Shown here piece by piece: positions 1 to 7,062 of a DNA stretch of 7,062 nt. This DNA comes from a virus (Duplodnaviria; Heunggongvirae; Uroviricota; Caudoviricetes). The first letter of the stretch is position 1. Each line of letters starts with the position of its first letter. Made by a program: the position numbers and the translations under genes. The stretch covers positions 1 to 7,062 of the IMG/VR virus record IMGVR_UViG_2778261641_000004; one strand, 5' to 3'. Below the pieces are notes generated by a model. That model searched no databases. It was not told the origin of the DNA and saw only the letters and a program-made list of their open reading frames with translations.

Positions 1-873
1 CTGGAAATCCTCGGTACATTCATCGCGGGTGTCTGGGTATCCAAGGTTCTGGGGGCTTTCGGAAAAATATCAGGTTTACCGGTCCCACCCTGGCTTAAAT
101 TGTGGGCGCTTTACGCGGGCTATATTGTTAGCGACAGAGAAAATATTGCCGATAGCGCAAAATCTTCACTGAGGTATACGAAGCGAATTATCGGCGACAC
201 GCTGGCTGCTATTGGTATAAAAACAGATATCGGACGCAGGGATGTCAGTGAGGTCCGTGAATGGCCTGCGTGGATGGACTGGTTGCACGGGGGCCCCGGT
301 AAAGTTATCCGGCAGGGACAGAGTAACGGTGTAGTGCATGGCTCCAACGTCCAGCCCGACATCCCCGGCGGCGGTACTCTTGCTGATCGCAACAATAACC
401 CCGGGAACATTCGCCCGGTGAGCGGTAAAGGGTTCCGGTTTTTCGAATCAGCTCTTGAGGGCTGGGAGGCGATGAAAAACCAGCTCATGCGTTACTTTAC
501 CGGGAAAACAACCGGACGGGCATTACAGACTATTCAGGATATTGTCAGTACCTGGGCCCCGGCAGGTGATAACAACGATCCGAAAAAGTATGCACAGGAT
601 GTTGCGAAATGGATGGGAGTATCACCGAATGCAATATTGAATCTTACAGATCCCCAGACTATGGGTGCATTGATGCAGTCGATGGCGCGAAAAGAAGGTT
701 ATTCAAACTGGAACAGCCCGCTGGCGTATCAGGCCGCCGCTGGCAGCCTTAACCAGCAGACTGTTATAAATGTTCATGGAGTTAACAACCCTCAGGAGGC
801 GGCTAATCTGATCGCTGACAAGCAGGGGGCTGTAAATGCCAGGGCGGTACAGCAATTGAAAGGACCTGCGTAA
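1..873 (+). CDS. C-terminal part of a large tail protein, probably tape measure protein (5'-truncated by window edge)
   Basis: Frame 1 is open from base 1 (no stop before the TAA at 871-873), so the ORF starts upstream of the window. The first ~45 aa are hydrophobic (LEILGTFIAGVWVSKVLGAF...), followed by a Gly/Pro-rich region and a globular-looking C-terminus. It sits immediately upstream of the tail/baseplate genes and its stop overlaps the next start (TAATG). Confidence 0.5.
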   Translation: MEILGTFIAGVWVSKVLGAFGKISGLPVPPWLKLWALYAGYIVSDRENIADSAKSSLRYTKRIIGDTLAAIGIKTDIGRRDVSEVREWPAWMDWLHGGPGKVIRQGQSNGVVHGSNVQPDIPGGGTLADRNNNPGNIRPVSGKGFRFFESALEGWEAMKNQLMRYFTGKTTGRALQTIQDIVSTWAPAGDNNDPKKYAQDVAKWMGVSPNAILNLTDPQTMGALMQSMARKEGYSNWNSPLAYQAAAGSLNQQTVINVHGVNNPQEAANLIADKQGAVNARAVQQLKGPA

Positions 874-1523
874 TGGACTTTTTATCTGTTTTACTGCAGC
901 AGCGAACCCGCTCAATAGGAATCATTATTCCTGATGTGGTTATTACCGAAAAGCACACTGACGCCCTAGAAATTACGGAACATCCGGTTGAACAGCCCAC
1001 GAATGCTGGTGCCAGTGGTGAGGGCGCTGGTTATATATCAGAACACGCATTCAGGCGCCCTTCTGAGGTTGTGATGGAAACCGGTTTTTCCGGAGGCGGA
1101 TCGCTGCTTGATTTTGCCAGTAACCTGACGGCTACCAGTTTACTGGGTCTGAGCCCGAAAGAACTGTATCAGGAGTTGCTTAATCTGCAGCGGGATCGTA
1201 TTCCTTTCGATGTGACAACCGGCAAGCGTATTTACAACAATATGTTGATAAAAACGCTGGAGGTGACGACTGACAAGAGTAGTGAGAATGTGCTTCTGGC
1301 GACCCTTACCCTCAGGGAGGTGATTATTACCTCCACGCAGTCAATCAGGGTTGCCTCGAAAAACAATATGACCGAGGGAGTCGGAACGTCTGCTGTGCAG
1401 AATACAGGCACCAAAACAACGGTGCCGCCGAATAATTCCATTCTGAAATCGCTGCCACAGATAGCGCAAAAAGGTGTCACCACTGTCGATGGGTATCTGA
1501 GCAATTTATTTCTGGGAAGGTGA
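873..1523 (+). CDS. phage tail/baseplate assembly protein, function unassigned (216 aa)
   Basis: ATG at 873 overlaps the upstream stop (TAATG) with AAGGA 8 nt upstream. Position between tape-measure-like and hub-like genes suggests a tail assembly role; no family motif recognised with certainty. Confidence 0.45.
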   Translation: MDFLSVLLQQRTRSIGIIIPDVVITEKHTDALEITEHPVEQPTNAGASGEGAGYISEHAFRRPSEVVMETGFSGGGSLLDFASNLTATSLLGLSPKELYQELLNLQRDRIPFDVTTGKRIYNNMLIKTLEVTTDKSSENVLLATLTLREVIITSTQSIRVASKNNMTEGVGTSAVQNTGTKTTVPPNNSILKSLPQIAQKGVTTVDGYLSNLFLGR

Positions 1524-1526
1524 TTC

Positions 1527-1829
1527 ATGGAGGCCGTAGAAATCCCACTGGTTGCTGACAATCAGACTTTTGCCACCACAATTAACGGTACGGTTTATCA
1601 ACTGTCTGTCATCTGGCGCGGAGAGTACTGGGTTCTGGATCTTGCTGACAGCAATGGTTCCGCCATTATCTCAGGCATTCCGATGATTACGGGTGCTGAC
1701 CTGTTGGCGCAGTATCGATATATGAATCTCGGGTTTTCGCTGGTGGTACTCTGCGACGTGGCAGGGCAGGAAAACCCGACGCAATTCGATCTTGGAACGC
1801 TCTCACACCTCTATGTTTTCACGGAGTAA
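1527..1829 (+). CDS. small phage tail-associated protein, function unassigned (100 aa)
   Basis: ATG at 1527 lies 3 nt after the upstream stop with GGAAGG 6 nt upstream, and is tightly packed in the same operon. No recognisable LysM or other motif. Confidence 0.45.
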   Translation: MEAVEIPLVADNQTFATTINGTVYQLSVIWRGEYWVLDLADSNGSAIISGIPMITGADLLAQYRYMNLGFSLVVLCDVAGQENPTQFDLGTLSHLYVFTE

Positions 1830-1831
1830 CA

Positions 1832-2863
1832 ATGTCGAAAAACTGGATGCGTCACTTTGAATTATTGCTTGTTGATGATAAGGGCGACGGGATAAAAATT
1901 TCTGAGCTTAAAGTCACTTTCAATATTCAGAAAATGCCTGCGAGCATATTTAATGGATTCGTTGGAAATTTTAAGGTTTATAACCTGTCCCCTACCACTC
2001 AGAATCGGATTATGCAAAAGGAGTTTTCGCGTATACAGGTTATTGCCGGATACAAGGGGCAACCGGATGCAGCAGGTAATTATCCTGATGAAAACGTTGG
2101 TATGATATTCAATGGAGATATCCGTTTTACTGTCACTGGTAAAGATAATGCCACAGACAGTTGGATCATGTTGCAGTGTATTGACAGCTGGGAAGGTCAC
2201 CTGAACGCAAGTGTGAAAACCACAGTGGCAGCTGGCTGGAAGTACAGCGATCTTTTCAGTCTGGGTATGAAATCATTCGAACCATATGGCATCGAATCCG
2301 GTGCAGTTCCTGACATGCCGGAAACGGTATTCCCCAGAGGTCGCGTTGTTTATCAAAACACATCAAGGTTGATGAATCATATCGCAGGGCAGTGTAAAGC
2401 TAACTGGTGGTATGAAAATAATCTGGTAAATATTGTTCCTGAAGATAAATATATTGGTGTTGCTACGGTGTTGAATGCTAACACCGGGCTTATCGGTATG
2501 CCACAGCAGACGATGGGCGCTGGCGTAAATGTCAGATGTCTGATTAATCCAAATATTAAGCTCGGTGGGCTTATTCGTCTGGATCAGGCATCTGTATACC
2601 GTGCCTCTTTGAGTAATGACCAGGTAGCGAAATCGCCAGCACGACTGGATGAGTCTGAAAGCGACGGTAATCTCTACGTTAACGGTCTGCCAGGCATGTC
2701 ACAGCCTGCCAGCATTAATACTGACGGTGATTACATTGTGGGCAGCATTGATTATACTGGCGATACCCGAGGGCAGGCGTGGTATATGGACCTGCTTTGC
2801 CTGGCTAAAGGTGGCAAAGAATTGCTTAACTCGAAAGGGATTGATGCGGAGAAATACACATGA
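1832..2863 (+). CDS. baseplate hub-like protein (P2 gpD / Mu gp44 / T4 gp27-like), 343 aa
   Basis: GGAG 5 nt upstream of ATG 1832. The N-terminal pattern (AGYKG...IFNGDIRFTVTGKDNATDSWIMLQCID) and C-terminal pattern (GAGVNVRCLINPNIKLGGLIRL ... GDYIVGSIDYTGDTRGQAWYMDLLCL) resemble hub (late control D) proteins as I remember them. Not verified by search. Confidence 0.5.
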   Translation: MSKNWMRHFELLLVDDKGDGIKISELKVTFNIQKMPASIFNGFVGNFKVYNLSPTTQNRIMQKEFSRIQVIAGYKGQPDAAGNYPDENVGMIFNGDIRFTVTGKDNATDSWIMLQCIDSWEGHLNASVKTTVAAGWKYSDLFSLGMKSFEPYGIESGAVPDMPETVFPRGRVVYQNTSRLMNHIAGQCKANWWYENNLVNIVPEDKYIGVATVLNANTGLIGMPQQTMGAGVNVRCLINPNIKLGGLIRLDQASVYRASLSNDQVAKSPARLDESESDGNLYVNGLPGMSQPASINTDGDYIVGSIDYTGDTRGQAWYMDLLCLAKGGKELLNSKGIDAEKYT

Positions 2864-3195
2864 AAAGACCATTGTTGACAGTTTTACTTGTCTGTATCTC
2901 CTTCATTTCCTTTGCTGATACCGGTTGCGGACCATTTACGATCAACTGGAAAGCGCAAGACGGACTTGCAAGGATTAATGGACAGAAACCGGAGACACAG
3001 AAAATCATCTTTCTCAAACAGGAAGGTGATTATGACAATGTGAACATCCAATGGATGATTCCGGGTAATGGGCGTTGGTTAGGGATGGATTTTGTGGCCA
3101 GAAATGGCAAGCCGATCCTCAACGTTGAAGTTATCCGCAAAAATATGGACGAGCCTCGGGAGTTCTGGACGTATGATTGCCGGAAGGTTAAATGA
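2860..3195 (+). CDS. small secreted (periplasmic) protein with Sec signal peptide; candidate moron / superinfection-exclusion-type protein (111 aa)
   Basis: ATG overlaps the hub stop (ATGA). The N-terminus MKRPLLTVLLVCISFISFA is a classic signal peptide (basic n-region, hydrophobic core, SFA cleavage motif). There is no canonical lipobox. The mature part has two Cys (near residue 23 and near the C-terminus). The gene is AT-rich and is followed by an intrinsic terminator. Confidence 0.6.
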   Translation: MKRPLLTVLLVCISFISFADTGCGPFTINWKAQDGLARINGQKPETQKIIFLKQEGDYDNVNIQWMIPGNGRWLGMDFVARNGKPILNVEVIRKNMDEPREFWTYDCRKVK

Positions 3196-3210
3196 TCTTG
3201 CCCTCTCCGT

Positions 3211-3234
3211 AACCCACCGTCAGGTGGGTTTTTT
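3211..3234 (+). terminator. rho-independent terminator (T1) closing the TMP-hub-secreted protein transcription unit
   Basis: Perfect 8-bp stem AACCCACC / GGTGGGTT with a GTCA loop, followed by a T6 tract (3229-3234). The hairpin overlaps the last codons of the convergent mnt-like gene. Confidence 0.75.
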
Positions 3235-3540
3235 GTTTAGCAGTTCTCTCAACTTTTCGTTCTGCTCTCTGAACTTTTCCTGTATTTCTTTTTGCATGGC
3301 GATAACCTGGGCTTGAAGTTGAACTAGCGCATCAACATTTAGCGGAACCGAGACGCTGTTGATTTTGTCTGCTATTTCCCCAAGAGTATTTTCTGCATTC
3401 AAGGCATCTTCCAGTATCTGCACAATCTCTGAGTTCATTGATCTGCCGTTACGTTTAGCTCGTTCAGCTATAGCATCTCGCATTCCTGCAGGAAGCCTGA
3501 TATTGAACCTATCCATTTCATGACTAGGGAACTTGCTCAT
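3220..3540 (-). CDS. mnt: Mnt-like ribbon-helix-helix (Arc/MetJ superfamily) repressor with C-terminal coiled-coil (106 aa)
   Basis: DRFNIRLPAGMRDAIAERAKRNGRSMNSEIVQILEDAL aligns with remembered P22 Mnt (HFNFRMP...ANGRSMNSELLQIVQDAL). The C-terminal heptad-like region (LQAQVIAMQKEIQEKFREQNEKLRELL) is consistent with Mnt tetramerisation. GAGG lies 6 nt upstream of the ATG on the - strand. Confidence 0.8.
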   Translation of the reverse strand: MSKFPSHEMDRFNIRLPAGMRDAIAERAKRNGRSMNSEIVQILEDALNAENTLGEIADKINSVSVPLNVDALVQLQAQVIAMQKEIQEKFREQNEKLRELLNKKPT

Positions 3541-3574
3541 ATGACCTCAATGTAAAGATGTTTGCTAAACAATA

Positions 3575-3630
3575 GCACCAACTTGACATCAAAATAAATG
3601 GTGTTAAATTGGTTCTAGAACCAAGTTGGT
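3575..3630. promoter_or_regulatory. divergent promoter/operator region between mnt-like and arc-like genes (putative Pant plus operators)
   Basis: Perfect -35 TTGACA (3583-3588), a 16-nt spacer, then extended -10 TGtTAAATT (3602-3610) facing arc/ant. A 16-bp perfect palindrome TTGGTTCTAGAACCAA (3609-3624) overlaps the -10 and predicted +1. A 9-bp inverted repeat ACCAACTTG (3577-3585) / CAAGTTGGT (3622-3630) overlaps the -35. The - strand promoter for mnt could not be placed confidently. Confidence 0.55.
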
Positions 3631-3651
3631 ATCATTGTGGGAGGATTACTT

Positions 3652-3825
3652 ATGAAAGATGTGCTTTACACAGGTCGTAAAAGTCAAAGTTTCCAGCTTC
3701 GTTTGCCAGCGCGAATGAAGGAGGAGATTAGACGTGTTGCTGAAATGGATGGAATTTCTATCAACTCTGCGATTGTGCAGCGACTGGCTAAAAGCCTGAG
3801 AGAGGAAAGAGCTAATGCCCAATAA
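3652..3825 (+). CDS. arc: Arc-like ribbon-helix-helix repressor (57 aa)
   Basis: SFQLRLPARMKEEIRRVAEMDGISINSAIVQRL resembles remembered P22 Arc (QFNLRWPREVLDLVRKVAEENGRSVNSEIYQRV). GGGAGGA (3639-3645) lies 6 nt upstream of ATG 3652. The GTG start at 3637 in the ORF track lacks an RBS. Confidence 0.75.
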   Translation: MKDVLYTGRKSQSFQLRLPARMKEEIRRVAEMDGISINSAIVQRLAKSLREERANAQ

Positions 3826-3898
3826 AAATAGTGAAGCCCGGCAGTGCGCGAACACAAACCGGGCCTCTATGTCAGTAACCGTATGCAAGGAAACTAAC

Positions 3899-4525
3899 AT
3901 GAATATTGTAGCAAAATCAGATTACAACTTCCACGGAGTTGAGTTGGTGCCCACCCGTGATATGCATGGTGTTTGGTTTACGTCATCTAATATTGCATCT
4001 GCACTTAAATATGCAAATAGCCGTGCAGTAACAATGATTTATAACAAGTATAGCGATGAGTTTAGCGCCGGAATGACTCAGGTACTCGAAGTGAGTACCT
4101 CAGGAAATTATCGCAAAAAAGTGCGAGTTTTCTCACTACGCGGTGCCCACCTAATCGCGATGTTTGCTCGCACTCCGGTAGCCAAAGAGTTCCGCCGCTG
4201 GGTGCTGGATATTTTGGATCGGCAGGCAGAATGCTCACCGATTGCAAAACAGTTCACTGACGAAGAGCTGGTTAATCTCTGCTACTTACAATTGTGGATG
4301 GAGAAGAGTCAACAAATGTGCAAACACATCTACCCAGGAATGAAGCAAATTGGTTCTGAGCTTTCAGGAAGGATTTACGATATTGCATATGAGACTCGCT
4401 ACATGTCAGAAGAAACCAAGAAATCACTTCTTCGTGAAATGAAGAATCTTGATACCAACAATTTTGTCGTAAAGAACGCTCAGCCAATGCTGGCAAAACT
4501 TCGCGGCGAGGAATGGATTCATTGA
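3899..4525 (+). CDS. ant: phage antirepressor, BRO-N/Ant-type N-terminal domain (209 aa from ATG 3899; possible upstream start at 3815)
   Basis: YNFHGVELVPTRDMHGVWFTSSNIASALKY ... LRGAHLIAMFARTPVAKEFRRWVLDIL matches the BRO-N/antirepressor pattern (F.F..IR...G.PWF.A.DVA.ALGY ... A..F..WV). AAGGA (3887-3891) lies 7 nt upstream of ATG 3899. The gene is immediately downstream of arc, as in P22 immI. Confidence 0.7.
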   Translation: MNIVAKSDYNFHGVELVPTRDMHGVWFTSSNIASALKYANSRAVTMIYNKYSDEFSAGMTQVLEVSTSGNYRKKVRVFSLRGAHLIAMFARTPVAKEFRRWVLDILDRQAECSPIAKQFTDEELVNLCYLQLWMEKSQQMCKHIYPGMKQIGSELSGRIYDIAYETRYMSEETKKSLLREMKNLDTNNFVVKNAQPMLAKLRGEEWIH

Positions 4526-4540
4526 TTGGTGCACAGGACG

Positions 4541-4574
4541 GCGCAAAAGAAAACCGCCAGTGTGCTGCTGGCGG
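4541..4574 (-). terminator. reverse-strand rho-independent terminator in the ant - antirepressor-2 intergenic region
   Basis: Perfect 7-bp GC-rich stem CCGCCAG / CTGGCGG (4554-4560 / 4568-4574) with a 7-nt loop. On the - strand it is followed directly by TTTTCTTTT (complement of + 4545-4553). On the + strand it is followed by CCTATGTCAC, with no U-tract, so it is oriented for leftward transcripts only. Confidence 0.6.
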
Positions 4575-4618
4575 CCTATGTCACACCCTTACTACCACAT
4601 AAGGAATGCCTAATGACT
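4545..4618 (-). ncRNA. candidate sar-like antisense RNA overlapping the RBS and start codon of the second antirepressor-like gene (hypothetical)
   Basis: Candidate - strand promoter inside the 5' end of the 4613 gene: -35 GTGACA (+ 4648-4653), 17-nt spacer, -10 TACATT (+ 4625-4630), predicted start near 4617-4619. The transcript would run leftward across ATG 4613 and SD 4601-4605 and end at the - strand terminator, giving about 70-75 nt. This is inference only. Confidence 0.3.
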
Positions 4619-5338
4619 TTTAAGAATGTAGCAAACATCGGATCCGTTGTCACGGATAAAACCATTGACAGCCAAAGTCTTCTGATGATGGTTAATGAAG
4701 CTCGCAAGTTATGTGGAGAGCCATCAGTACGTAACAACAAATTCATCGAGAAAATTGAGGATGAATTGGAAGGCGAGACCTACACAAAAAGTGTAGGTCG
4801 GAAAAACGGGGCTGACATTGATGTTATCTCCATGACTATCAAGCAGGCGCTTCGTGTTGCTGCTCGCGAATCTAAAGCAGTTCGCCGCTCACTTGTAGAC
4901 CAACTTGAAAGTATGCAAGAAGCGCACATTAAAAGCGGTAAATCGTCGAGTGGACTTGTTGAGTATCGCCAGGCGCGAACATTGAAAATGACGGTTGAAG
5001 CTGTTACCAATCTGTTCGATTTGATGCCAAATCTTGCGCCGGAAGCAAAGCAGACCGCGGCCGCAAGCATAATCAACCCGATCGTTGGTTTTAATGCAAT
5101 ACCCCTTCCGGCAATAGAAGAGCATTACTACTCAGCAGGGGAGGTTGCAGAGCAGCTTGGAGTAACGGCCAACAAGATTGGTCGCATTGCTAACGCAAAC
5201 AACCTCAAAACTGAGCAGTACGGGAAGTTCTTCCTGGATAAATCGGCGCATTCCAGCAAACAGGTGGAAGCATTCCGCTACAATGCGGAAGGTGTTAAAG
5301 CACTACAACACCTGGTTCATGGGAGTAATGTTGCATAA
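4613..5338 (+). CDS. second antirepressor-like / phage regulatory protein (Rha-like N-terminus, KilAC/ANT-like HTH C-terminus), 241 aa
   Basis: AAGGA (4601-4605) lies 7 nt upstream of ATG 4613. The N-terminus (TIDSQSLLMMVNEARKLCGEPSVRNNKFIEKIEDEL) resembles Rha-family regulators. The C-terminus (YYSAGEVAEQLGVTANKIGRIANANNLKTEQYGKFF) resembles the KilAC/ANT antirepressor C-terminal domain. The TTG start at 4526 in the ORF track has no RBS and would read through the hairpin. Confidence 0.5.
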   Translation: MTFKNVANIGSVVTDKTIDSQSLLMMVNEARKLCGEPSVRNNKFIEKIEDELEGETYTKSVGRKNGADIDVISMTIKQALRVAARESKAVRRSLVDQLESMQEAHIKSGKSSSGLVEYRQARTLKMTVEAVTNLFDLMPNLAPEAKQTAAASIINPIVGFNAIPLPAIEEHYYSAGEVAEQLGVTANKIGRIANANNLKTEQYGKFFLDKSAHSSKQVEAFRYNAEGVKALQHLVHGSNVA

Positions 5339-5559
5339 TGGCAAAGAAAAAATATGGCATTATGCCGCCAAGAATCAAAGGAAGAGCCATGGTAAAAGGC
5401 GATGCTGGGAGATATCACATTCTTGGTGTTTTGTGGCATGAGAGAGCTTTAATTTTAAGCAGACCTCATGGGTACATTGAAAAGGTATCTATAGATAGAA
5501 TTGAGATTCTTCCCCTTACTCCTGAAGAAGAAGAAACGTACGGACTTTTTGATAACTAG
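5338..5559 (+). CDS. small hypothetical protein (73 aa), translationally coupled to the antirepressor-like gene
   Basis: ATG 5338 overlaps the upstream TAA (TAATG). It has a basic N-terminus (MAKKKYGIMPPRIKGR) and an acidic C-terminus (TPEEEETYGLFDN), and is followed by terminator T2. No family recognised. Confidence 0.45.
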   Translation: MAKKKYGIMPPRIKGRAMVKGDAGRYHILGVLWHERALILSRPHGYIEKVSIDRIEILPLTPEEEETYGLFDN

Positions 5560-5570
5560 CCAATTCACTA

Positions 5571-5594
5571 AACCCAGCTTCGGCTTGGTTTTTT
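5571..5594 (+). terminator. rho-independent terminator (T2) at the 3' boundary of the accessory module
   Basis: Stem AACCCAGC / GCTTGGTT (one mismatch or bulge) with a TTCG tetraloop, followed by a T6 tract. It matches T1 at 19 of 24 positions. Confidence 0.7.
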
Positions 5595-5613
5595 ACTTTC
5601 TGGAGACATATGA

Positions 5614-6369
5614 ATGCCCGTTTCTTTAAGCGATCAACTTGGTAGCAAAGAACAGGCCGATGTAAGACTTGCTGGCTCTGTCATGTCGGCGCTGCGTGTT
5701 TCTATGCCCGGCATCGTCCAGTCATTTGATCCGGACACGGTAACAGTGGTTGTTCAACCTGCGATTAAAGGCTATGAGCCGGACTCAAATGGAATCAACC
5801 AGTCGACGACATTACCCCTGCTGGTGGATGTGCCGGTGGTATTCCCGCGCGGCGGCGGCTGCACGTTAACTTTCCCGGTGAAAGCCGGCGATGAATGTCT
5901 GGTGATTTTTGCCGATCGCTGCATCGATTTCTGGTGGCAGAACGGCGGGGTACAGGAGCCTGTCGATGACAGAATGCATGATTTATCGGATGCGTTCTGT
6001 ATCGTCGGTCTGCAGTCTCAGGCGCAGAAAATCAGCGGAATCAGCACCAGCGCCGCGCAACTGCGTACTGATGATGGCGCTGCGTTTGTGGAAGTGGCCG
6101 CAGGCCATAACATCACGGTTAAAACCCCCGGCGCGCTGACGGCGACAGCAGAAGGTGGGACAACAATCACATCCCCGACTATCACGCTGAACGGCAACGT
6201 AACGATTAATGGCAATCTGTCTCAGGGAATGGGCGAAAGTGGCGGTACTGCGACGATGCTTGGCCCTGTCACGGTGACTAACGATGTAAAAGCTGGTGGT
6301 AAGAGCCTGATGACGCACACGCACGGCGGAGTACAGACCGGCGGCGGTAACACAGGAGCGCCTAACTGA
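5614..6369 (+). CDS. baseplate central spike protein (P2 gpV / phi92 gp138-like, OB-fold N-domain plus Gly-rich beta-helix with His apex), 251 aa
   Basis: GGAG 8 nt upstream of ATG 5614. The N-terminal pattern (LLVDVPVVFPRGGGCTLTFPVKAGDECLVIFADRCIDFWW) is OB-fold gpV/gp138-like. The C-terminus has Gly/Thr-rich repeats ending in KSLMTHTHGGVQTGGGNTGAPN, analogous to the P2 gpV apex (KVLHTHKHPGD...), where the HxH motif binds iron. Confidence 0.8.
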   Translation: MPVSLSDQLGSKEQADVRLAGSVMSALRVSMPGIVQSFDPDTVTVVVQPAIKGYEPDSNGINQSTTLPLLVDVPVVFPRGGGCTLTFPVKAGDECLVIFADRCIDFWWQNGGVQEPVDDRMHDLSDAFCIVGLQSQAQKISGISTSAAQLRTDDGAAFVEVAAGHNITVKTPGALTATAEGGTTITSPTITLNGNVTINGNLSQGMGESGGTATMLGPVTVTNDVKAGGKSLMTHTHGGVQTGGGNTGAPN

Positions 6370-6722
6370 TGCGATACAGACGTGAAGACGCCGATGGCGA
6401 TTATACCTTTGGCAGCGGTGATGACACCTGGCTGATTAACTCACCGGAGGCCGTGGCGCAGGCGGTAAAAACGCGATTCAAATTGTGGTATGGGCAATGG
6501 TTTCTCGATACCACCGAAGGGACTCCGTGGATCCAGTCCGTACTCGGTAAGCAGAAGCCGGAAACCTACAACCTGGCGATCCGTAAGCGCATCCTCGAAA
6601 CGCGGGGCGTTAAATCAATCCTCTCTTTCAATACGACGGTGGATACCACGACCCGACGTGTCATGTTTTCCGCTGAAATCGACACTCTTTATGGAATAAC
6701 GACTGTTACATCGGAGGCGTAA
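6369..6722 (+). CDS. small baseplate wedge protein (gpW/gp25-like or DUF-type baseplate protein), 117 aa
   Basis: ATG overlaps the spike stop (TGATG). Its size and its position between the spike and the baseplate-J gene match gpW/gp46-type proteins. The sequence-level match is not certain. Confidence 0.5.
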   Translation: MRYRREDADGDYTFGSGDDTWLINSPEAVAQAVKTRFKLWYGQWFLDTTEGTPWIQSVLGKQKPETYNLAIRKRILETRGVKSILSFNTTVDTTTRRVMFSAEIDTLYGITTVTSEA

Positions 6723-7062
6723 TGGCTCTGAACCTTGATTCTCTCGGTTTATCTGCAAAGGTAACCGCAGAGGGGATCAGTGCGCCTGATTATCAGACGA
6801 TACTCAGCACCCTGATTAGCTATTTTCAGCAGATTTATGGCAGTGATGCCTACCTCGAACCAGACAGCAAAGACGGCCAGATGGTGGCTCTGATGGCGCT
6901 GGCGATTCATGATGCCAATAATACTGCGATAACTGTCTACAACTGTTTTTCACCGGCAACCGGCTATGGGGCTGCACTGACCAGTAACGTGAAAATAAAT
7001 GGTATTTCACGTAAAGGCGCGACGAACTCTACGGTTGATTTGCTTCTTACAGGAACTGCCGG
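6722..7062 (+). CDS. baseplate J-like protein (P2 gpJ / Mu gp47 family), N-terminal 113 aa, 3'-truncated by window edge
   Basis: ATG overlaps the upstream TAA (TAATG) and the frame is open to the window end. The sequence (DYQTILSTLISYFQQIYG...ATGYGAALTSNVKINGISRKGATNSTVDLLLTG) fits the Baseplate_J N-terminal pattern. It is absent from the ORF track only because it has no stop in the window. Confidence 0.75.
   Translation, partial: MALNLDSLGLSAKVTAEGISAPDYQTILSTLISYFQQIYGSDAYLEPDSKDGQMVALMALAIHDANNTAITVYNCFSPATGYGAALTSNVKINGISRKGATNSTVDLLLTGTA

Follow-up and report, generated by a model that had tools for sequence, protein, structure and literature searches.

A predicted antisense RNA unit, sar2, at the start of the second antirepressor gene of a phage immunity cassette

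It is antirepressors that determine whether a prophage remains silent, and through them prophages can also induce one another. The closest described case of antisense control over their synthesis is that of phage P22, in which the RNA sar blocks translation of ant by base pairing (PMC12197685, PMC2629481), while the c4 RNA of phages P1/P7 acts at the ribosome-binding region (PMC12197685). In the P22 record, sar lies at 15021-15090 on the - strand, with a terminator at 15021-15058 and a promoter, Psar, at 15097-15125, within codons 3-12 of ant; Psar reads GTGTTA-17-TGCTATACT, and transcription begins at the G immediately past the start codon. Enterobacterial prophages commonly have operons with two or three antirepressor genes, and the silencing of each gene within them has been little addressed so far; a comparison of "ant morons" in 2008 noted only that some of them need control unlike that of P22 (PMC2629481). 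Here we consider a 7,062-nt stretch of caudoviral DNA (IMG/VR record IMGVR_UViG_2778261641_000004, positions 1 to 7,062; hereafter the window), which carries an operon of an arc-like gene and two antirepressor genes, ant1 and ant2. Our analysis makes it quite likely that positions 4545-4653 of the window form a self-contained antisense unit, sar2, for the cis-antisense control of ant2. Literature searches returned no publication on a second sar-like RNA or on antisense control of a second ant gene.

The sar2 unit and its conservation

The target of the putative unit, ant2 (4613-5338, + strand), encodes a 241-residue protein of the antirepressor family, which matches phrog_1726 ("anti-repressor") over its full length with an E value of 4.6e-101 and has no match in the Pfam search of the window proteins. 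In the spacer upstream of this gene the + strand reads CCGCCAG (4554-4560), a loop tgtgctg and CTGGCGG (4568-4574), with AAAAGAAAA (4545-4553) before the hairpin and CCTATG after it, so that only the - strand reads a hairpin followed by UUUUCUUUU. A previous sequence-only reading of the window had noted this strand bias, and we find it as described: the intrinsic terminator of sar2 (4545-4577, - strand) has a stem at 4554-4560/4568-4574, which can be extended to 4551-4577, and a T-tract, TTTTCTTTT, at 4553-4545. In a scan of 3100-5700 this hairpin was the strongest terminator-like site, with 10 pairs of which 6 are G-C. It had also been remarked that no - strand gene lies to the right for the hairpin to terminate, and this too holds, as every recognisable gene on that side is on the + strand; the candidacy of the - strand open reading frames (ORFs) that overlap ant2 was rejected, since none of them matches a PHROG family.

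The candidate antisense promoter, Psar2, was recovered in our scan where the sequence-only reading had placed it, just inside the 5' end of ant2, as a - strand GTGACA-17-TACATT at 4653..4625 with 9 of 12 matches, to which we can add the TG of an extended -10. Its -35 hexamer (4648-4653) appears on the + strand as T GTC AC, from the third base of codon 12 to codon 14, and its extended -10, TGCTACATT, occupies 4625-4633 (TG at 4633-4632, hexamer TACATT at 4630-4625) in codons 5-7 (AAT GTA GCA). The whole promoter, GTGACA-17-TGCTACATT, is written within ant2 codons 5-14, and the terminator stands 50 nt downstream of it on the same strand. Transcription is predicted to start at A4618, 7 nt past the -10 as in P22 sar, and to end at about 4545, giving a non-coding - strand RNA of about 74 nt (4545-4618) complementary to the ant2 leader, the Shine-Dalgarno (SD) sequence and the first 6 nt of the ORF. 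The target region (4601-4615, + strand) contains the SD AAGGA at 4601-4605 and the ATG at 4613-4615, and the 74-nt interval itself holds no ORF beyond AUG-UGG-UAG. An RNA of roughly 70 nt covering the SD and ATG of ant2 had been proposed before, and the prediction is strongly supported by the comparison with relatives that follows.

Relatives of ant2 were drawn from annotated genomes and from IMG/VR, the latter queried both with the window protein and with a diverged relative. The promoter was assessed on ant2 homologs chosen by protein homology and having an alignable N-terminus; these provided 19 distinct 5' coding segments, representing about 8-10 lineages with 69-98% protein identity. GTGACA, a 17-nt spacer and TGnTAnAnT are kept in 19/19 of these segments, and the sequence of the spacer varies. 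The promoter-critical bases, which we took as the -35 hexamer, the TG, the -12 T, the -11 A and the -7 T, are invariant at 11/11 positions as against 7/40 of the other bases (Fisher p = 6.7e-7), and the same bias is seen at third codon positions, where 4/4 promoter-critical but 2/13 other bases are invariant (p = 0.006). The encoded residues do vary: codon 5 specifies N or T and keeps AnT, codon 6 specifies V or L and keeps nTA, codon 7 specifies A, T or S and keeps nCA, and codon 12 specifies V, I, T or A and keeps nnT. Because the amino acids change while the promoter bases stay, which is the pattern expected of such selection, this DNA appears to be selected as a promoter and not solely as coding sequence.

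The terminator is conserved in a different manner. Its stem occurs in 16 distinct versions, with unrelated arms among them (CCGCCAG/CTGGCGG, GCCAATAG/CTATTGGC and GCCGATAG/CTATCGGT); the arms are GCCGGCAG/CTGTCGGC in Klebsiella phage KpnBHU6 and CCGCCAA/TTGGCGG in Erwinia phage Midgardsormr38. All 128 of 128 cells of the stem alignment are paired, with compensatory change in 4/8 pairs and no broken pair, a degree of pairing matched by 0/500 shuffles and by no slipped register. The T-tract is on the - strand in every version, and in four sequences the stem contains an internal G.U pair on the - strand that corresponds to an A.C mismatch in the + strand RNA. Conservation in homologous modules, on whose presence the sequence-only reading had staked its proposal, is therefore found in both elements, with an invariant promoter and a covarying terminator. 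The signature is both simple and specific for the purposes of annotators: searched on both strands of 118 loci (1.21 Mb), the pattern [GT][TC]GACA-N14-TGnTAnAnT occurs 102 times, once per locus, and 102/102 matches are antisense to an ant2-type start and are followed by a hairpin and T-run, with no occurrence elsewhere in the 1.21 Mb. Members of the ant2 family in the early regions of Stx phages, in APSE and in one IMG/VR contig group have neither a properly spaced promoter nor a - strand terminator; these relatives, which lie outside immunity cassettes, begin with another N-terminus and are preceded by a terminator on the + strand. As these negative controls have neither element, the promoter and terminator of sar2 seem to come and go together.

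The unit also has recognisable boundaries. BLAST comparison with E. coli genomes places mosaic breakpoints at 4546, the predicted 3' end of the RNA, and at 4674, just past the -35, so bracketing sar2, and at least two different types of ant1 gene precede the unit. The block of terminator, leader and first ~14 codons thus appears to travel as a unit behind differing first antirepressor genes. Sar2-type units are distributed among phages infecting E. coli, Klebsiella or Erwinia, and E. coli HS, 55989 and O111:H8 carry the module. In Salmonella phage SPN3UB (locus L003, 3661-3776, - strand) a unit of this type, TCGACA-17-TGCTACATT with the same CCGCCAG terminator, precedes gp22, a gene of a different antirepressor-like family (phrog_4936/1760), with its predicted start at about codon 7 rather than codon 2. 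A covariance model of the sar2 type, R2, which has the window sar2 in its seed and the SPN3UB unit outside it, detects the latter at 44.9 bits (E 1.4e-7); the seed sequence from the window scores 64.1 bits. In E. coli A41 and EC16 (loci L006/L007, ~2468-2530), where the unit adjoins another type of ant1, we observed the arrangement CTGGCGG-tgaaaaaaaa-CCGCCAG-tgtgctg-CTGGCGG, whose three arms may be able to form alternative hairpins and may represent a recombination scar at the module boundary.

Proposed mechanism and alternative explanations

The arrangement enabled us to propose a model for the regulation of ant2. By analogy with P22 sar, a sigma-70 promoter of the extended -10 type, on the - strand in ant2 codons 5-14, would start transcription at about A4618. 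The resulting 74-nt transcript would cross the ant2 start codon, SD and leader, stop at the intrinsic terminator in the ant1-ant2 spacer, and fold, again on the P22 pattern, into a 5' stem-loop containing the anti-SD followed by the terminator hairpin. Pairing of this RNA with the arc-ant1-ant2 mRNA made from the operon promoter, Pant, would then block the 30S subunit at the ant2 ribosome-binding site as sar does in P22, leaving Ant2 untranslated, and the duplex might be cleaved by RNase III. The RNA over ant1 described below, sar1, would do likewise at that gene, giving each antirepressor cistron a private translational off-switch.

The predicted fold of the window sequence has two hairpins (-25.1 kcal/mol, z -2.6), and the first of these, stem-loop I (4580-4617, - strand), holds the anti-SD UCCUU. 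Minimum free energy folds place two hairpins, one of them 5', in 12/12 lineages of differing sequence. RNAalifold on MAFFT alignments recovered the terminator helix only, for the sar2 and P22-type sets alike; in the variable 5' half these alignments take no account of structure, and for this reason stem-loop I has no formal covariation support. That the 5' stem-loop of sar2 presents the anti-SD is weakly supported by these models.

Several points weigh against the sar2 interpretation. The whole case is built from DNA, and P22 Psar is an unusual promoter that is stimulated by convergent transcription from Pant, which means that promoter strength is not readable from the sequence. The predicted 5' stem-loop is of modest stability (z 0 to -2.2 across the lineages), and RNAalifold gave no consensus 5' helix for sar2 on the MAFFT alignments. 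Many of the loci are closely related, and their counts overstate independence, with some 8-10 lineages truly distinct. Taken by itself, the promoter match does not exceed chance in the window (3 sites against 3.8 ± 2.1 in shuffles), and its -35 partly overlaps a Val-Thr dipeptide at codons 13-14 that is conserved as protein. These last two points would equally suit a reading in which hairpin and promoter are unrelated: the hairpin would belong to the polycistronic + strand mRNA, as a stabiliser of the ant1 3' end, a decoupler of translation or a site of processing, or would simply be a recombination hotspot at a module boundary, and the "promoter" would be a by-product of a conserved N-terminal peptide; the mosaic junctions located at the hairpin and the third CTGGCGG arm upstream in L006-type loci also fit this account. 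We nevertheless regard it as quite unlikely. A conserved peptide does not predict that codons 5, 6, 7 and 12 vary in amino acid with the promoter-critical bases fixed, and a + strand structure does not predict internal G.U pairs that turn into A.C mismatches on that strand, nor the retention of the A-run before the hairpin with four unrelated stems, a run for which we know of no + strand role in this position. The joint presence or joint absence of promoter and terminator speaks against it as well. Terminator-like sites are somewhat enriched in the window (6 against 2.5 ± 1.5 in shuffles), and it is the paired arrangement and its conservation, not the promoter match alone, that exceed chance.

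It is conceivable, though unlikely, that the sar2 unit is transcribed but acts through transcriptional interference or collision with polymerases from Pant, or that it insulates ant1 from leftward read-through, with no pairing at the ribosome-binding site. The two promoters are indeed convergent (Pant at 3583-3610 on the + strand, Psar2 at 4653-4625 on the - strand), and in phages of the JEP4 type, with a - strand mnt gene to the right of the ant genes, leftward transcription may enter the region. However, the window has no - strand gene on that side, the overlap, of just ~74 nt, has the SD and ATG precisely at its centre in all lineages, however the leader sequence differs, and the P22 precedent blocks translation initiation by base pairing (PMC12197685). 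Very improbable, in our judgement, is a longer leftward transcript begun further right, which the hairpin would end and for which the internal promoter-like site would be irrelevant. This would leave the base conservation of the -35 and -10, the fixed 17-nt spacing and the fixed distance to the start codon unexplained, and no - strand gene or promoter-like site was seen in 4654-5700, although a second small - strand hairpin with a T-run at 5355-5370 indicates that leftward signals do exist in the cassette. Having weighed these alternatives, we consider it likely that the sar2 RNA exists and represses ant2.

The P22-type unit over ant1 and the surrounding cassette

The sequence-only reading had placed antisense control on the second antirepressor gene rather than on the one adjacent to arc. 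This exclusion was wrong, as the spacer between arc and ant1 holds sar1, a divergent P22-type homolog of sar, much closer to it than the ant2 unit and positioned over the ant1 ribosome-binding site. The unit (3824-3898, - strand) has its TG at 3913-3912, a -10 TACAAT at 3910-3905, its +1 at G3898, a terminator stem at 3833-3867 and a T-run at 3824-3828 that adjoins the arc stop codon; the spacer sequence reads ...TTTTGCTACAATATTCAT|GTTAGTTTCCTTGCATACGGTTACTGACATAGAGGCCCGG...CCGGGCTTCACTATTTTT. The promoter TGCTAnAnT, written in ant1 codons 3-5, and the +1 G next to the start codon are as in P22 sar, and the fold is that of P22 sar, with a 5' stem GUUAGU/ACUGAC around the anti-SD followed by a long terminator hairpin. 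The folding energies are likewise close, at -33.3 kcal/mol (z -5.1) for sar1 and -29.5 (z -5.3) for P22 sar. By pattern search, P22-type sar units, with the family terminator GAAGCCC...GGGCTTC, are present in 76/89 sources as 26 distinct sequences, in which both stems vary by paired changes. The operon therefore probably carries one antisense RNA per antirepressor cistron, sar1 and sar2.

Two P22-type sar units occur in each of three loci. In some loci (L046 ~4827, L047 ~4871, L082 ~4242) a further unit of this type is located downstream of ant2, implying that the operon there contains a third antirepressor gene and, for it, a separate antisense RNA. A related observation concerns the proteins themselves. 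Among the ant starts of the loci analysed, several unrelated antirepressor families begin M-x-x-[I/V/L](nTA)-[A/S/T](nCA), as seen in the window at 3899-3913 and 4613-4633, with the motif in ant2 shifted by two codons. The motif is the complement of the antisense promoter TGnTAnAnT, and for that reason the N-terminal peptide of these antirepressors looks to be set by the opposite strand.

The wider context is that of an inserted module. The backbone of the window consists of + strand tail and baseplate genes (a hub-like gene at 1832-2863, a spike gene at 5614-6369 and others), and an immunity-I-like cassette at ~3200-5600 splits this run. Within the cassette, an mnt-like gene for an Arc-family repressor (3220-3540, - strand; Pfam Arc, E 1.6e-20) is divergent from the arc-ant1-ant2 operon. 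The operon is headed by a Pant-like promoter, TTGACA-16-TAAATT (3583-3610, + strand; 10/12 matches in the scan, with TG present), which from its position would drive arc-ant1-ant2-orf73. Its genes begin with the arc-like repressor gene (3652-3825, + strand; Pfam Arc, E 8.3e-12), followed by ant1 (3899-4525, + strand), whose product has Bro-N and P22_AR_C domains, then ant2 and the 73-codon ORF, orf73 (5338-5559, + strand). Among named phages, P22-like Escherichia phage JEP4 (MT740315) is the nearest, with 96.5% identity over 3819-5563, and for the cassette taken alone the best match reaches 98% identity. Among the complete E. coli genomes searched, the best coverage of the window is 68%, with none at 80% or above. 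The backbone is present in many E. coli genomes with the same slot filled by other inserts, and in this respect the cassette resembles the "ant moron" reported from P22-like phages (PMC2629481).

Three further elements of the cassette were observed. A perfect palindrome, TGGTTCTAGAACCA, lies at 3610-3623, directly after the -10 of the Pant-like promoter, and may be the operator at which the Arc-like or the Mnt-like repressor binds. The hairpin AACCCACC-GTCA-GGTGGGTT at 3208-3232, with T-runs legible on either strand, has a + strand lipoprotein-like ORF (2860-3195, phrog_3443) on one side and the 3' end of the mnt-like gene (- strand) on the other. It probably terminates transcription in both directions at the left border of the cassette; in Rfam it drew sroH terminator matches of chance level. 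The small - strand hairpin at 5355-5370, TGGCGGCATAATGCCA then TATTTTTTCT, is inside the first codons of orf73. In JEP4-type phages the - strand mnt gene adjoins the 3' end of this ORF with a gap of 14 nt, where the hairpin may serve as the mnt terminator; the window has no mnt on that side.

Family membership and comparison with known systems

The sequence-only reading had likened the unit to P22 sar. The likeness stands for the architecture and fails for family membership, as neither the Rfam sar model RF00262 nor our own broader model detects 4545-4618. RF00262, with a gathering threshold of 43 bits, scores P22 sar at 97.8 bits and gave no sar match at 4510-4670 (E<=10, lax filters) or in the window as a whole. 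It also misses sar1 (161-nt slice, 3790-3950, E<=10), and as 26 distinct versions of the P22 type are found in 76/89 sources, the Rfam family is evidently much narrower than the real one. The broader model, R1, was made from 21 P22-type sar sequences including sar1; with filters off and E<=10 it matched only 3824-3898 in the window (73.5 bits for this seed sequence), with nothing at 4545-4618. In the reverse search, R2 found neither sar1 nor P22 sar. Rfam matches to symR, sroH, ctRNA_p42d, Hrs13 and NsiR4, obtained with the whole window and the 161-nt slices, were discarded as chance level and driven by terminator shape; the weak symR match given by sar1 reflects the common two-hairpin shape. 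Judged by these searches, sar2 is sar-like in design and appears to be a separate family, not a detectable member of that of P22 sar.

If sar2 is real, antisense control of ant would be modular and would operate per cistron, the Rfam sar family would greatly under-represent such RNAs, and sar-type RNAs would be far more widespread and diverse than that family suggests. The constraint placed on the first codons by a promoter of the other strand would also make a clean case of dual coding. We lean towards a more general picture, in which multi-antirepressor operons use a portable "plug-in" cassette to provide a cis-antisense off-switch for each cistron; the cassette would comprise a terminator on the - strand, a leader and the first ~14 codons, which serve at the same time as an antisense promoter. 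In this picture at least two sequence-unrelated RNA families, the P22-type sar and the sar2 type, would share the design, and it would be the opposite-strand promoter, not protein function, that sets the signature M-x-x-[IVL](nTA)-[AST](nCA) at the N-terminus of many Ant proteins.

Among other known systems, SymR/symE, lambda OOP and RNAs of the plasmid CopA type resemble sar2 in being short, constitutively terminated antisense RNAs that overlap the 5' end or ribosome-binding site of their target; their sequence, context and targets are unrelated. The c4 RNA of P1/P7 (immI, icd-ant1/2) is, like sar2 in its predicted role, an RNA repressor of antirepressor synthesis. The c4 RNA is cut from the operon transcript itself, being encoded on the same strand upstream, and it pairs via short loop sequences, whereas sar2 would be a convergent, fully complementary cis-antisense RNA. 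No C4 match was found in the window (Rfam, E<=10). Residues 14-105 of Ant2 are ~72% identical to phage P1 Ant1, and window positions 4661-4719 have ~81% DNA identity to P1 ant1. Since control of P1 ant1 falls to c4, an unrelated antisense RNA, the same protein module would seem to have come under two RNA control systems.

The two units of the window share one operon and one design, with sar1 inside the P22-type family and sar2 outside it. They have two short strings in common, TTTGCTACA within the promoter and TGACATAG..GGCC ahead of the terminator, and these hint at either a distant common origin or convergence under the same constraints. With P22 sar, the predicted sar2 shares the form of a ~70-nt cis-antisense RNA convergent with Pant and complementary to the SD and AUG, an extended -10 TGCTAnAnT in the first antirepressor codons with the start at or beside the start codon, and an intrinsic terminator located in the spacer upstream; the 5' stem-loop ahead of that terminator is weakly predicted for sar2. 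It differs in targeting another antirepressor family (phrog_1726) at an internal cistron, from the ant1-ant2 spacer instead of the arc-ant spacer; in a predicted +1 inside the ORF (+6), as opposed to -1 in P22; in a -35 near consensus, GTGACA as against GTGTTA; and in its terminator stem. A cis-antisense RNA over the ribosome-binding site of an antirepressor gene is a kind of control already known; what would be new in sar2 is the unrelated sequence family, the different ant gene, the internal cistron and the apparent portability of the unit.

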